From the sequence record ON528734: a stretch of DNA of 64,000 bases; one strand, 5' to 3'. The notes under the pieces are model-generated. The model was not told the DNA's origin. It ran no database searches and worked only from the letters and a program-made list of their open reading frames with translations. Position numbers and translations under genes: made by a program. The stretch's first letter is position 1. Every line of letters starts with the position of its first letter. This DNA is from Shigella phage ESh24. Shown here piece by piece: positions 970 to 44,952 of the stretch.

Positions 970-1998
970 ATGTCATCAATACCTTGGATTGATAATGAGT
1001 TTGCATACCGTGCATTAGCTCATTTACCTAAATTCACACAAGTAAATAATAGTTCAACTTTTAAATTGCGGTTTAGATGCCCAGTGTGTGGAGATTCAAA
1101 AACCGACCAGAATAAAGCTCGTGGATGGTATTATGGTGATAATAATGAAGGAAACATTCATTGTTATAACTGTAACTATCATGCACCAATCGGAATATAT
1201 TTAAAGGAGTTTGAACCTGATTTATATCGTGAGTATATCTTTGAAATAAGAAAAGAAAAAGGTAAAAGTCGTCCAGTAGAAAAACCTAAAGAACTTCCTA
1301 AACAACCTGAGAAGAAAATAATTAAATCTCTTCCGTCATGTGTTCGATTAGATAAACTGGCGGAAGACCATCCAATTATAAAATATGTAAAAGCTCGTTG
1401 TATTCCAAAGGATAAATGGAAATATCTTTGGTTTACAACCGAATGGCCTAAATTAGTTAATAGCATAGCACCGGGAACATATAAAAAGGAAATTTCTGAG
1501 CCTCGTCTTGTTATTCCAATTTATAATGCTAATGGAAAAGCTGAGTCTTTTCAAGGACGTGCATTAAAGAAAGATGCTCCTCAAAAATATATCACCATCA
1601 AAGCTTATCCTGAGGCAACAAAAATCTATGGAGTCGAACGAGTTAAAGATGGTGATGTATATGTTCTAGAAGGACCTATAGATTCGCTTTTTATTGAAAA
1701 TGGTATAGCTATTACGGGTGGTCAATTAGACCTAGAAATTGTTCCATTTAAAGATAGACGTGTGTGGGTTTTAGATAATGAACCTCGTCATCCTGACACT
1801 ATTAAGCGAATGACTAAATTAGTTGATGCAGGAGAAAGGGTTATGTTTTGGGATAAATCTCCCTGGAAATCAAAAGATGTTAATGATATGATTAGAAAGG
1901 AAGGTGCAACCCCTGAACAAATTATGGAATATATGAAAAATAATATTGCCCAGGGGTTAATGGCTAAAATGCGGTTATCTAAATATGCTAAGATTTAA
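970..1998 (+). CDS. 61: DNA primase gp61
   Basis: 342 aa, N-terminal zinc ribbon CPVCGD...CYNC; length and sequence match T4 gp61 as recalled. Confidence 0.9.
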   Translation: MSSIPWIDNEFAYRALAHLPKFTQVNNSSTFKLRFRCPVCGDSKTDQNKARGWYYGDNNEGNIHCYNCNYHAPIGIYLKEFEPDLYREYIFEIRKEKGKSRPVEKPKELPKQPEKKIIKSLPSCVRLDKLAEDHPIIKYVKARCIPKDKWKYLWFTTEWPKLVNSIAPGTYKKEISEPRLVIPIYNANGKAESFQGRALKKDAPQKYITIKAYPEATKIYGVERVKDGDVYVLEGPIDSLFIENGIAITGGQLDLEIVPFKDRRVWVLDNEPRHPDTIKRMTKLVDAGERVMFWDKSPWKSKDVNDMIRKEGATPEQIMEYMKNNIAQGLMAKMRLSKYAKI

Positions 1999-2195
1999 AT
2001 TAACCCAACTAAAGCAAATGCTAAATCTACGAATGTATCAAGAGTAACTACTGGAATACTAACGCCATGAGCAATAGCAACTGGCGATAAAACAAAATTC
2101 CAAAGTAAAATTCCTATCATAGCAGAAATAGTAAAAGCTATACGTTTCTTATTACCTTTTATGGCATTAACAAGTGCCATTAATTTTTGTACCAT
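1995..2195 (-). CDS. hypothetical small hydrophobic protein (antisense to the gene 61 / dam-region early unit)
   Basis: 66-aa ORF, strong SD AGGAGG 7 nt upstream of ATG, near-consensus late-promoter box upstream on minus strand; two predicted TM stretches. Confidence 0.3.
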   Translation of the reverse strand: MVQKLMALVNAIKGNKKRIAFTISAMIGILLWNFVLSPVAIAHGVSIPVVTLDTFVDLAFALVGLI

Positions 2196-2285
2196 ATGTC
2201 CTCCTTTAAATTAATATTTATCATAAATTTGTTTACTTTCTCAGCTTGTTATGGTATTATAAAATAAATTGCTGAGGATGATATA

Positions 2286-3625
<1,340 letters not shown>

Positions 3626-3685
3626 TTGCTTACATATTCAAATGATATAATTATTTAACTTATTAATGAATTGAAAGGAAAAATA

Positions 3686-4204
3686 ATGGCTCACTTTAAT
3701 GAATGTTCACAACTGATCGAAGGCGCTGATAAAGCTCAAAATGAATATTGGGATATTCTCGGTGATGAAAAAGACCCGCTGCAGGTTATGCTTGACATGC
3801 AGAAATCTTTGCAGGTTCGTTTAGCTAAAGATAAACCTGAATATAACCGTCATCCTGATGATTTGGCTACTGCAGGTGAAGTTGTTGATTGGCTGCGTAA
3901 TCAGAAAGATTATATTGACGATGAATTCCGTGAACTTCTGACTTCTCTTGGTGGTATGAGTAATGGTGAAAAAGACGCATCTGCTGTATGGAAACCTTGG
4001 AAGTCGCAGCATGGTGAACGTCGTGAAACTCTGATTACTGATTTGTCTCCACAGGACCAGTTAGAAATCAAATTCGAAATGATTGATATTCTCCATTTTG
4101 TTCTGAACATGTTTCAAGGTCTTGGTCTTACAGCAGAAGAAATCTTTAAACTTTATTATCTGAAAAATGCTGAAAATTTCGCTCGTCAAGACCGAGGTTA
4201 TTAA
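3686..4204 (+). CDS. 56: dCTPase/dUTPase gp56 (MazG-like)
   Basis: ATG at 3686 with RBS AAAGGA; 171 aa; sequence recalled as T4 gp56. Confidence 0.85.
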   Translation: MAHFNECSQLIEGADKAQNEYWDILGDEKDPLQVMLDMQKSLQVRLAKDKPEYNRHPDDLATAGEVVDWLRNQKDYIDDEFRELLTSLGGMSNGEKDASAVWKPWKSQHGERRETLITDLSPQDQLEIKFEMIDILHFVLNMFQGLGLTAEEIFKLYYLKNAENFARQDRGY

Positions 4205-4234: not shown

Positions 4235-4242
4235 TATAAATA
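4235..4242 (+). promoter_or_regulatory. late promoter TATAAATA upstream of soc
   Basis: exact TATAAATA about 30 nt upstream of soc ATG. Confidence 0.6.
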
Positions 4243-16840: not shown

Positions 16841-19018
16841 ATGATTATCACCACTGAAAAAGAAACAATTCTTGGTAATGGTTCTAAATCAAAAGCATTT
16901 AGCATCACAGCATCTCCTAAAGTATTTAAAATTCTGTCATCTGATTTATATACAAACAAAATTCGCGCAGTAGTCCGTGAATTGATTACCAACATGATTG
17001 ATGCCCATGCTCTCAATGGAAATCCTGAAAAATTTATCATTCAAGTTCCTGGACGTTTAGATCCACGATTTGTTTGCCGAGATTTTGGTCCAGGTATGAG
17101 TGATTTTGATATTCAGGGTGATGATAATTCTCCTGGTTTGTATAATTCATACTTCAGTTCATCTAAGGCTGAATCTAACGATTTCATTGGCGGATTTGGT
17201 TTAGGTTCTAAATCTCCGTTTAGTTATACTGATACATTTAGTATTACTTCATATCATAAAGGCGAAATTCGTGGTTATGTAGCTTACATGGATGGTGATG
17301 GTCCGCAAATTAAACCTACATTCGTAAAAGAAATGGGTCCAGACGATAAAACTGGTATTGAAATCGTAGTTCCAGTTGAAGAAAAAGATTTTAGAAACTT
17401 TGCTTATGAAGTTTCTTATATCATGCGACCATTCAAAGATTTGGCTATCATTAATGGCCTTGACCGCGAAATTGATTATTTTCCGGATTTTGATGACTAT
17501 TACGGTGTAAATCCAGAAAGATACTGGCCTGATCGCGGCGGATTATATGCTATCTATGGCGGTATTGTTTATCCTATCGATGGTGTTATTAGAGACCGTA
17601 ATTGGCTAAGCATTCGCAATGAAGTGAATTACATTAAGTTTCCAATGGGTTCACTGGATATTGCTCCATCACGCGAAGCTCTTTCACTGGACGATCGCAC
17701 TCGCAAAAATATTATTGAACGAGTTAAAGAGCTTAGTGAAAAGGCATTCAATGAAGATGTAAAACGATTTAAAGAATCTACATCTCCTCGTCACACATAT
17801 CGTGAATTGATGAAGATGGGGTATTCTGCTCGAGATTATATGATTAGTAATTCGGTCAAATTCACGACTAAAAATCTGTCATATAAAAAGATGCAGAGCA
17901 TGTTTGAACCTGACAGTAAGTTATGTAATGCAGGAGTTGTGTATGAAGTAAATCTTGACCCTCGACTGAAACGCATTAAGCAAAGTCATGAAACTTCAGC
18001 CGTTGCATCAAGTTATCGTCTGTTTGGTATTAATACAACAAAAATTAATATCGTTATTGATAATATTAAAAATCGTGTTAATATTGTCCGTGGATTAGCA
18101 CATGCGCTAGATGATAGTGAATTTAATAACACTTTAAATATTCATCACAATGAGCGTCTTCTGTTTATTAATCCGGAAGTAGAATCGCAGATTGATTTAC
18201 TACCTGATATTATGGCAATGTTTGAAAGTGATGAAGTTAACATTCATTATTTGTCAGAAATTGAAGCTTTAGTTAAAAGCTATATTCCAAAGGTAGTTAA
18301 AAGTAAAGCTCCTCGTCCTAAAGCTGCTACAGCATTTAAGTTTGAAATTAAAGATGGGCGTTGGGAAAAAGAGGAATTATTTACACTTACGTCAGAAGCA
18401 GATGAAATTACTGGTTATGTAGCGTATATGCATCGTTCTGATATTTTCTCTATGGATGGTACTACATCACTTTGTCATCCATCTATGAATATTTTGATTC
18501 GTATGGCTAATCTTATTGGTATTAATGAATTTTATGTTATTCGTCCGCTTTTGCAGAAAAAGGTAAAAGAGCTTGGTCAGTGCCAATGTATTTTTGAAGC
18601 TTTACGTGATTTATATGTAGATGCTTTTGATGATGTAGATTATGATAAGTATGTAGGTTATTCAAGTTCAGCTCAACGATATATTGATAAAATTATCAAG
18701 TATCCTGAACTAGATTTTATGATGAAGTACTTCAGTACAGATGAAGTTTCTGAAGAATATACACGACTTGGTAATATGGTTAGTTCATTACGCGGTGTGT
18801 ATTTTAATGGTGGAAAAGATACCATCGGTCATGATATCTGGACAGTAACTAATCTCTTTGATGAATTATCACGTAATGCTTCAAAAAATAGTGATAAAAT
18901 GGTTGCTGAGTTTACCAAGAAATTCCGTATTGTTTCTGACTTCATCGGTTATCGCAGCTCTTTAAGTGATGATGAAGTTTCCCAAATCGCTAAAACTATG
19001 AAGGCCCTTGCGGCCTAA
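16841..19018 (+). CDS. rIIA: rIIA protein (lysis inhibition / Rex exclusion determinant)
   Basis: 725 aa, exact T4 rIIA length, followed by rIIB. Confidence 0.9.
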
Positions 19019-27280: not shown

Positions 27281-27937
27281 TTATTTAGCCCTTCCTAATA
27301 TTCTGGCCGCCTGAGCACATATTGATTCAAGGCGGTCATTACTTATATGATCATTTCTATACCAGTACATGGTTATCGTTCCAGCATAGATATTATCCAA
27401 ATTAAAATATGGACAACTGTACATGTAGTTTATTTCGGGAGTAGGCTTTTTAGTTGGTAAAAAAGCAAATTTTGAGTTGGAATAATAATGACGTCCATTT
27501 AAATGAACTATATATTCATCCATAGTTTTATCAACAGGATATCCTCCAAGTGATTTTTCACTTATTGTTGAAGGTAATTTTCCTTCATATGCTATAATAT
27601 CAACAAAATAGTTTAAGTTTTTAGGGCGGAAAGAATACACCGCACTAAAGTCTGCCTCAGATGATATATGAACTATCTGGAGTTGTTCCAGGGCGACAGA
27701 TTCAAAGCGTGCATTTCTTTCCTTTTCAATAATTTCACTGTATGTTTCATACTTTGATTGCTTATAGTACTCAAAGAAACTATCTCCCCTATACCAAACA
27801 ATCGCCATTATAAACAAAAGAATTACGACAGCTACCCGGGAAGCAAGAACCTTCCCGGTAGCATTATCTTTGAACAAGCGATCTAGAACACCCAACAGAA
27901 TATCAGAGGGCGAAAATGATATTCTAGGTGCTGCCAT
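27281..27937 (-). CDS. t: holin T
   Basis: 218 aa with single N-terminal TM and large periplasmic domain; T4 t length. Confidence 0.9.
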   Translation of the reverse strand: MAAPRISFSPSDILLGVLDRLFKDNATGKVLASRVAVVILLFIMAIVWYRGDSFFEYYKQSKYETYSEIIEKERNARFESVALEQLQIVHISSEADFSAVYSFRPKNLNYFVDIIAYEGKLPSTISEKSLGGYPVDKTMDEYIVHLNGRHYYSNSKFAFLPTKKPTPEINYMYSCPYFNLDNIYAGTITMYWYRNDHISNDRLESICAQAARILGRAK

Positions 27938-27955
27938 AGACCCTCCTTTTAAGGA

Positions 27956-27963
27956 TATTTATA
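27956..27963 (-). promoter_or_regulatory. late promoter TATAAATA for t
   Basis: plus-strand TATTTATA, about 20 nt upstream of t start. Confidence 0.55.
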
Positions 27964-43936: not shown

Positions 43937-44952
43937 TAATTGAGGCCTGAGTATAAGGTGACTTATACTTGTAATCTATCTAAACGGGGAACCTCTCTAG
44001 TAGACAATCCCGTGCTAAATTGTAGGACTGCCCTTTAATAAATACTTCTATATTTAAAGAGGTATTTATGAAAAGCGGAATTTATCAGATTAAAAATACT
44101 TTAAACAATAAAGTATATGTAGGAAGTGCTAAAGATTTTAAAAAGAGATGGAAGAGGCATTTTAAAGATTTAGAAAAAGGATGCCATTCTTCTATAAAAC
44201 TTCAGAGGTCTTTTAACAAACACGGTAATGTGTTTGAATGTTCTATTTTGGAAGAAATTCCATATGAGAAAGATTTGATTATTGAACGAGAAAATTTTTG
44301 GATTAAAGAGCTTAATTCTAAAATTAATGGATACAATATTGCTGATGCAACGTTTGGTGATACATGTTCTACACATCCATTAAAAGAAGAAATTATTAAG
44401 AAACGTTCTGAAACTGTTAAAGCTAAGATGCTTAAACTTGGACCTGATGGTCGGAAAGCTCTTTACAGTAAACCCGGAAGTAAAAACGGGCGTTGGAATC
44501 CAGAAACCCATAAGTTTTGTAAGTGCGGTGTTCGCATACAAACTTCTGCTTATACTTGTAGTAAATGCAGAAATCGTTCAGGTGAAAATAATTCATTCTT
44601 TAATCATAAGCATTCAGACATAACTAAATCTAAAATATCAGAAAAGATGAAAGGTAAAAAGCCTAGTAATATTAAAAAGATTTCATGTGATGGGGTTATT
44701 TTTGATTGTGCAGCAGATGCAGCTAGACATTTTAAAATTTCGTCTGGATTAGTTACTTATCGTGTAAAATCTGATAAATGGAATTGGTTCTACATAAATG
44801 CCTAACGACTATCCCTTTGGGGAGTAGGGTCAAGTGACTCGAAACGATAGACAACTTGCTTTAACAAGTTGGAGATATAGTCTGATCTGCATGGTGACAT
44901 GTAGCTGGATATAATTCCGGGGTAAGATTAACGACCTTATCTGAACATAATG
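43937..44952 (+). mobile_element. td group I intron (1016 nt) carrying I-TevI
   Basis: 5' intron sequence matches the T4 td intron as recalled; 1016-nt length equals T4 td intron; exon 2 resumes in frame. Confidence 0.9.
44068..44805 (+). CDS. I-TevI: GIY-YIG homing endonuclease I-TevI
   Basis: 245 aa; GIYQIKNTLNNKVYVGS GIY-YIG motif, Zn finger, C-terminal DNA-binding domain. Confidence 0.9.
   Translation: MKSGIYQIKNTLNNKVYVGSAKDFKKRWKRHFKDLEKGCHSSIKLQRSFNKHGNVFECSILEEIPYEKDLIIERENFWIKELNSKINGYNIADATFGDTCSTHPLKEEIIKKRSETVKAKMLKLGPDGRKALYSKPGSKNGRWNPETHKFCKCGVRIQTSAYTCSKCRNRSGENNSFFNHKHSDITKSKISEKMKGKKPSNIKKISCDGVIFDCAADAARHFKISSGLVTYRVKSDKWNWFYINA

Follow-up and report, generated by a model that had tools for sequence, protein, structure and literature searches.

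A conserved small gene convergent with the DNA primase gene of T4-like phages probably encodes a late, accessory inner-membrane protein

The stretch of DNA analyzed here (the window; 64 kb of Shigella phage ESh24) was compared with phage records by megablast using positions 1700–2900, which matched 503 records, nearly all at 95–99% identity and almost all belonging to Tequatrovirus. Thus, the window represents a T4-like genome whose given strand runs in the direction of early transcription. Its first 4.2 kb carry on the plus strand sp (138–431), gene 61 (970–1998), an ORF for a nuclease-like protein of 186 aa (2286–2846), dam (2846–3625) and gene 56 for dCTPase (3671–4204), together with two further small ORFs. 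On the minus strand, 1.6 kb from sp, lies a 66-aa coding sequence at 1995–2195 (ATG start, stop codon included), which was recognized from the ORF list and its match to PHROG 2024, and whose predicted product is MVQKLMALVNAIKGNKKRIAFTISAMIGILLWNFVLSPVAIAHGVSIPVVTLDTFVDLAFALVGLI. This small ORF is divergent from the 186-aa ORF and convergent with gene 61, annotated as DNA primase in relatives; the two convergent genes share 4 nt (1995–1998), stop over stop, as described in the earlier note on this DNA.

The minus-strand 5′ flank of the small ORF reads GATAAATA-ttaatttaa-AGGAGG-acat-ATG. It contains a perfect AGGAGG Shine-Dalgarno sequence (SD; 2200–2205, minus strand) and a 4-nt spacer (ACAT) between the SD and the ATG. 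The earlier note had recognized the SD correctly, but its 7-nt spacing is obtained only by counting from the middle of the element. About 20 nt 5′ of the ATG is a late-promoter-like box, GATAAATA (2215–2222, minus strand), which agrees with the T4 consensus TATAAATA at seven of eight positions, the sole mismatch being a G at the first position (−13). Antisense ORFs of 60–95 aa are plentiful in the AT-rich DNA of the window, and the length of the small ORF alone is not significant. The composite signal ATAAATA-N6-16-GGAG-N3-9-ATG occurs twice on the two strands of the 64-kb window versus 0.12 occurrences expected, and the second occurrence belongs to the T4-type holin gene t, located elsewhere in the window near 27.3–27.9 kb.

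Two transcription signals of the plus strand lie close to or within the small ORF. A terminator-like hairpin followed by a T-run (2161–2190, plus strand; 8-bp stem, TAATTTTTGT tail, ΔG −8.9 kcal/mol) sits within codons 2–12 of the small ORF and is likely the end of the early/middle transcript of gene 61; its equivalent is annotated as a terminator in phages fPS-65 and SA21RB. The hairpin is conserved in Tequatrovirus only and cannot account for the cross-genus conservation of the small ORF, so that the gene 61 terminator was ruled out as the cause of the conserved N-terminus. The second signal is a candidate σ70-like early promoter that would serve the divergent 186-aa ORF (2232–2260, plus strand; TTTACT-17-TATTAT with TG); in fPS-65 and JB75, an early promoter has been predicted at the corresponding position. 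This candidate is context and no part of the small gene. A σ70-like match on the minus strand (2305–2278) was rejected, its 9/12 agreement corresponding to chance frequency and the T4 sequence at this place being unrelated to that of the window.

The product of the small ORF matched phrog_2024, a family with no assigned function, over the full length of the profile (E-value 8.1e-31; residues 2–66 on profile positions 1–65 of 65), and it was also recovered by a profile built from 21 family members. This PHROG was the sole match in the PHROG collection, and the window protein had no family match in Pfam or NCBIfam. Weak Pfam matches of one or two relatives to SSPI, Syndecan and Ldr_toxin (E-values 0.03–0.1) were considered noise; this includes the notion of an Ldr-like type I toxin peptide, which was suggested by one of the 21 members at an E-value of 0.1. 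Members RB32ORF030w (RB51/RB32), VR7 gp033, VR26_031-032, JB75_0238, fPS-65 g034, bas37_0144 and bas41_0145 share family, length, position and orientation with the window ORF, which does not differ from them and is a plain member of PHROG 2024; none of the members has a described function.

To define the distribution of the family, we searched phage records by tblastn and obtained 697 matches to the small protein, 685 of them at ≥80% coverage. About 500 records, from Tequatrovirus, had at least 86% identity, and 195 records from Mosigvirus, Gaprivervirus and Kanagawavirus fell below 60%. In all, about 700 or more phage records from at least eight genera carry the intact frame. A profile search of 5.8 billion proteins returned 109 clusters (90% identity) of 41–74 aa, most of them 62–74 aa, the shorter members looking like fragments; wherever the source was named, it proved to be either a T4-like phage or an enterobacterial assembly. 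When 1.84 billion representatives were searched exhaustively by HMM, the gain was only a few distant small proteins, which, where their context was examined, came from Karamvirus, Jiaodavirus and similar T4-like phages, and this search revealed no link to any characterized family. Homologs of gp61 at ≥60% identity were found in about 949 records and the small-ORF family in 847 (tblastn, permissive E ≤ 1). From these counts, the small gene appears to be near-universal in, and restricted to, Tevenvirinae, and it was present in every genus of this subfamily that was sampled.

The position of the gene was also conserved. A related-locus search in viral contigs yielded nine loci, and the DNA used for comparison was mostly taken from phage records in GenBank and from look-ups of the encoding contigs. 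At every locus examined, representing eight genera, the small gene occupies the interval between gene 56 (or dam) and gene 61, to which it is convergent, and often shares the 4-nt stop overlap; at one locus (L025), another gene separates it from the primase gene. In RB49 (Krischvirus, outside Tevenvirinae), gene 56 directly follows gene 61 and the small ORF is absent. The family consists of two subfamilies, the T4-type A (...AIKGNKKR...) and B (MGTxFYQIWKL...), and some phages carry A and B in tandem in either order; no paralog of the small protein was found within the 64-kb window.

T4 is among the best-studied viruses, and the ORF is intact in its genome (NC_000866, 17,738–17,938, plus strand), but it is unannotated in both T4 references, NC_000866 and AF158101. 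The exact T4 protein sequence was present only in raw-read (Logan) assemblies and not among NCBI proteins, whereas the window protein is identical to NCBI proteins from, for example, vB_EcoM_F1 and G8. In T4 derivatives and hundreds of relatives, automated pipelines labeled the product as “hypothetical protein”, “putative membrane protein” or RB32ORF030w. Thus, the small gene is already catalogued rather than new; it is real but ordinary. Its absence from the T4 reference annotation means that studies relying on that annotation do not score a conserved gene, and adding it would be a small but real correction, which is the main practical value of the gene.

One such study is the transposon sequencing of T4-like phages by HIDEN-SEQ (10.1101/2025.11.20.689424), in which the T4D gene table lists nothing between dam and 61. 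The same work includes phage Bas37, where bas37_0144 (201 bp) lies on the strand opposite the primase gene with a 4-nt overlap; from these coordinates and this architecture, rather than from sequence, we infer that bas37_0144 is the ortholog of the window ORF. Transposon insertions disrupted 20 of its 24 TA sites and the gene was classed “Non-essential” (10.1101/2025.11.20.689424). The three host comparisons examined, made with clinical isolates, gave log2FC values of +0.33, +0.20 and −0.28 with q = 1, none of them a significant change, and E. coli K-12 likewise revealed no phenotype (10.1101/2025.11.20.689424). Lysis-timing and superinfection phenotypes would escape such a screen. By analogy with this apparent ortholog in a close relative, the small gene appears to be dispensable in the laboratory.

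The earlier note had proposed a small membrane protein with two transmembrane (TM) helices. One of these is a strong TM segment: residues ~19–41 scored about −10 kcal/mol on the Wimley-White octanol scale. The other proposed helix, at residues 45–65, is doubtful, being marginal (−1.3 kcal/mol) with two Asp residues (D53 and D57), and it is weaker still in subfamily B. An AlphaFold2 model calculated from a 21-sequence alignment (pLDDT 78) placed helices at residues 2–14, 16–42 and 52–63, the C-terminal segment being modeled as a helix of 12 residues. The N-terminal 20 residues include five Lys/Arg and no acidic residue, and residues 43–66 contain two Asp and no Lys/Arg, the protein ending in ...FALVGLI. 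This distribution of a basic N-terminus and an acid-only C-terminal part favors an N-in, C-out orientation, and a single-pass N-in topology is what we would expect on these grounds, with some reservation.

Across 21 diverse members, including the window protein, five residues never vary (W32, N33, P38, G44 and V50), and P48 is conserved in ≥90%; the corresponding motif, W-N ... P ... G ... P.V, characterizes family members of 57–74 aa and is present in the window protein. An Asn conserved within a TM segment is known as a typical driver of helix association, and the conserved N33 points to a protein that would act by binding itself or a membrane partner. Structural and profile comparisons revealed no similarity to a characterized family: a sequence profile search of the PDB gave only matches at E > 0.2 to unrelated membrane proteins, and a search of BFVD with the AlphaFold2 model recovered only family members and one metagenomic “Holin” at an E-value of 8.3, which is not meaningful.

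We then considered how the gene would be expressed. T4 early and middle transcripts are all of one polarity, late transcripts are of either polarity, and several sites give rise to transcripts of both strands (PMC2988020). The small ORF lies on the strand opposite sp, 61, dam and 56, and is beyond the reach of early and middle transcription, which leaves a late promoter as the only known route of expression. The ATAAATA core of the candidate box noticed in the earlier note is conserved across lineages. Within 60 nt upstream of the ATG, ATAAATA is present in 10 of the 12 lineages compared, and it lies at −23 to −29 in nine of them, whereas 20,000 shuffles gave 0.67 on average and 5 at most. In phages of the SEA1/STP4-a type and in Karamvirus CkP1, ATTAAATA was found in place of ATAAATA. 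GGAG lies 9–11 nt 5′ of the ATG in 12 of 12 lineages; conservation in relatives, which the earlier note had suggested as a check, thus extends across genera for both the frame and its SD.

The deviation of the box from consensus is confined to its most variable position. The base preceding ATAAATA is G or A in Tequatrovirus, A in Mosigvirus and C in Gaprivervirus; the canonical TATAAATA is found in Kanagawa-, Slopek- and L024-type phages, and Klebsiella phage Potts1 has the canonical T at the first position. A list of 50 T4 late sites includes 32 perfect ones and nine with A at −13, most of the others carrying another single deviation; −13 is the most variable position of known T4 late promoters (PMC2988020). 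[quoted passage not shown] Within Tequatrovirus, homology upstream of the small gene breaks exactly at the box in three unrelated contexts, namely that of the window and JB75, that of T4 with its deletion, and that of SA21RB, which has no dam. The conserved ATAAATA core supports a putative gp55-type late promoter, from which transcription would be expected to start near position 2209, about 14 nt 5′ of the ATG. Judging from these features, the small gene is very probably transcribed late.

The earlier note had regarded a late small membrane-protein gene on the opposite strand within an early block as atypical, which seems overstated in view of the late transcription of T4 in either polarity (PMC2988020) and of soc, a late gene located in the same early block 2 kb from the small ORF, with TATAAATA at 4235. 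Like the small ORF, soc is a small late gene within the 39-56-61 early block and has a late box and an SD; it differs in lying on the early-gene strand and encoding a soluble capsid decoration protein, whereas the small ORF lies on the opposite strand and is predicted to encode a membrane protein. According to Macdonald, Kutter and Mosig (1984), T4 soc is reportedly a late gene inside an early region. Our literature search found no paper on the small ORF and no direct evidence of its transcription, translation or membrane location in any phage, and an omics study of T4 (PMC9697503) contains no mention of the small ORF or of antisense or unannotated transcripts.

We next evaluated whether the reading frame itself is under selection. 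Within Tequatrovirus, dN/dS of the small ORF was 0.10–0.21 (Nei-Gojobori); between genera, the same method gave saturated dS, a dN of about 0.4 and an amino-acid identity of about 50%. The protein motifs persist at about 50% and even at about 25% identity, with synonymous sites saturated. The plus strand is non-coding here, being the 3′ UTR of gene 61, and therefore an overlapping gene cannot explain the constraint. On the strength of these substitution patterns, the small ORF should almost certainly be regarded as a genuine protein-coding gene under purifying selection. That gene callers have merely picked up a chance ORF in the gene 61 3′ UTR, lacking a functional product, appears vanishingly improbable: antisense ORFs of similar length are indeed common in this AT-rich genome and the curated T4 reference annotation omits this one, but a chance ORF would not be expected to keep its frame, motifs, SD and promoter box across genera despite saturated synonymous divergence, nor to carry a composite box-SD-ATG signal so far in excess of expectation. 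The conserved elements could alternatively serve an RNA, the main role being that of a late antisense transcript that shuts off primase, with an incidental reading frame. Transcription from the box would be directed into gene 61, and a search for minus-strand terminators downstream of the small ORF found none, so that any transcript from the box would necessarily be complementary to the primase mRNA in its 3′ UTR and at its 3′ end, as the earlier note had argued for the latter, and the convergent layout is conserved. Late antisense transcription of T4 early genes is also on record (PMC2988020), as with gene 32 (work of Belin et al. 1987, as cited in PMC3014915), where, as predicted for the small ORF, transcription from a late promoter opposes an early replication gene. 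In contrast to the gene 32 case, however, the transcript predicted here bears a conserved and selected reading frame. The dN/dS of 0.1–0.2, the motifs that outlast synonymous saturation, the strong SD kept at a fixed distance, the tandem paralogs in some phages and the gene intervening before the primase gene in L025 all argue against a primary RNA function, and an RNA-only element would not preserve a frame of 62–74 codons in at least eight genera, making this explanation extremely unlikely. We read the antisense run into gene 61 as a by-product of genome packing and not as the purpose of the gene.

Taken together, these results suggest that the small ORF is probably a real, late-expressed gene for an accessory small inner-membrane protein. 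In the proposed scheme, RNA polymerase with gp55, gp33 and gp45 would start at the variant late box GATAAATA once replication begins, and translation of this monocistronic late gene, directed by the strong SD, would yield a protein of 7 kDa. The protein would be inserted in the inner membrane, leaving its basic N-terminus (five Lys/Arg) in the cytoplasm, and would span it by a single TM helix (~19–41) bearing W32-N33 and P38. An acidic amphipathic tail of roughly 24 residues, with the conserved G44, P48 and V50, would lie at the periplasmic face or beyond it. Through its buried Trp-Asn pair together with the conserved loop, the protein could enter into helix-helix association with itself or with another membrane protein and, as a best guess, modulate a late envelope process in an accessory, non-essential role.

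For the nature of this process we have only a tentative first guess, namely lysis timing or lysis inhibition through the network of holin T and antiholin RI; it is the likeliest single role, yet one that we would still consider doubtful, and it was chosen based on the predicted late timing, the T/RI-like orientation and the box-SD layout shared with gene t. T and RI are late, N-in proteins with a single membrane segment and the rest in the periplasm, as predicted for the small protein, and gene t and the small ORF have nearly the same box-SD-ATG layout. Globular periplasmic domains set T (218 aa) and RI (97 aa) apart from the small protein, of which only about 24 residues would lie outside the membrane and which has no sequence or fold similarity to either. 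Should lysis timing, lysis inhibition or exclusion turn out to be tuned by the small protein, a classic system would gain a further component; at present, it is one more non-essential T-even ORF without known function among about 130.

Late superinfection exclusion and the countering of a membrane-acting host defense are, as our best guess, close seconds to lysis timing. A late membrane factor for such phage-phage or phage-host conflict, including protection from an abortive-infection system that targets the membrane, in place of a lysis-timing function would fit a gene that is non-essential in the laboratory, like Imm, Sp and rII, lineage-restricted, fast-evolving outside a few motifs, duplicated in some phages and situated in a variable accessory-gene region. 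We nevertheless consider it unlikely, in that insertions were not depleted in the three clinical-isolate comparisons examined from the transposon study and the PHROG functional categories offered no match. To our knowledge, moreover, the T4 exclusion proteins are early and none is late. A second holin or a pinholin-like pore former would share the small size, hydrophobicity and predicted late timing of the protein and the promoter/SD layout of gene t, and it is suggested by the labels “holin family protein” (EAWsc9) and “Holin” (UniRef, OE5505) and by the faint structural likeness to the metagenomic “Holin” mentioned above (E-value 8.3). However, those labels came from automatic pipelines that assigned plainly wrong names in the same records, and none of the Pfam and NCBIfam holin HMMs matched the window protein or its 21 relatives at E-values up to 10. 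Holins typically have a hydrophilic, charged (basic) cytoplasmic C-terminal tail, and the small protein shows the opposite, a hydrophobic end with no basic residue, in addition to having only one convincing TM segment. Hydrophobic, late proteins of similar size (about 65–70 aa) are also known among class II holins and pinholins, for example S68 of phage 21. These have two clear TM domains and a cytoplasmic C-terminus that is basic, and they are encoded in a lysis cassette, features that the small ORF lacks; no endolysin or spanin gene adjoins it, the neighbors being the genes for primase, the nuclease-like ORF, Dam and dCTPase. As far as we know, T4 t mutants have an absolute lysis defect and do not lyse, which leaves no room for a redundant holin, and a pore-forming role is accordingly very unlikely. 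It is also very improbable that a single 230-bp unit performs two jobs, encoding a single-pass regulator of the holin/antiholin clock or of late exclusion and at the same time giving rise to a transcript that silences the primase mRNA. Compared with the known exclusion proteins, the predicted product of the small ORF resembles Imm and Sp in being a small, non-essential T-even envelope protein, its membrane location being predicted, and it differs in that Imm and Sp are encoded by early genes on the early strand and show no homology to it.

The 66-aa small ORF encoding a predicted membrane protein is intact in the reference T4 genome, where it occupies positions 17,738-17,938 of NC_000866 on the plus strand (3739-3939 of the extracted T4 locus), and it is annotated in neither of the T4 records NC_000866.4 and AF158101.6, nor does it have an entry in the T4D gene table compiled for Tn-seq (10.1101/2025.11.20.689424). 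The sequence match between T4 and the window ends directly upstream of the GATAAATA box. The neighboring 186-aa ORF has been lost from T4, and its 3′ remnant (3627-3738 of the T4 locus; NC_000866 17,626-17,737) is all that is left between dam and the small ORF.

In the window, this 186-aa ORF (2286-2846, plus strand) belongs to phrog_8706, a family labelled as of unknown function, and its end coincides with the start of dam, the phage GATC methylase gene. It has an invariant FDIVI...EIKHQ motif, and the family is very narrow, comprising about 10 clusters in a search of 5.8 billion proteins. Pfam DpnII gave a weak match below threshold (E 0.0045). The AF2 model of the product (pLDDT 80) matched the structures of PD-(D/E)XK nucleases, namely VC1899, McrC, MunI, Bax1 and Can2, with a TM-score of about 0.5 for the MunI restriction endonuclease. 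The phage GATC methylase gene is here paired with a gene, the 186-aa ORF, that is restriction-endonuclease-like.

A hairpin resembling a terminator of the gene 61 transcript (window 2161-2190, plus strand) falls within codons 2-12 of the oppositely oriented small ORF, and its conservation is restricted to Tequatrovirus. In Jiaodavirus there is no overlap between the small ORF and the primase gene. A GC-rich hairpin, GGGGCtttgGCCCC, lies between the two genes in Klebsiella phage KPN6 (at about 2193-2215 of its locus) and resembles a bidirectional terminator.

Two copies of the small gene in tandem, paralogues from the T4-type subfamily A and from subfamily B, were found in the order A-B in Gaprivervirus VR26 (2495-2901 of its locus) and in the order B-A in a metagenomic Mosigvirus-like contig (2501-2914); in both, the late box is present at the first copy only and the second copy carries an SD alone. 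Within the window, the box-SD-ATG layout of the small ORF recurs at a single site, that of holin gene t (218 aa, MAAPRISFSPSDILLG...), where the minus strand at 27935-27962 reads TATAAATA-tccttaaa-AGGAGG-gtct-ATG. At 44037 on the plus strand, an AATAAATA box and an SD, possibly marking a late promoter, precede a 245-aa ORF starting MKSGIYQIKNTLNNKVYVGSAKDF..., which has the appearance of a GIY-YIG homing endonuclease.

Database records of several members of the small-ORF family bear automatic names that are plainly wrong, for example 'DNA packaging ATPase' for the 66-aa proteins of UPEC01 and SAKp28, 'dCTP pyrophosphatase' (UniRef) for the 74-aa protein of SEA1, and 'Holin' or 'holin family protein' for those of OE5505 and EAWsc9.
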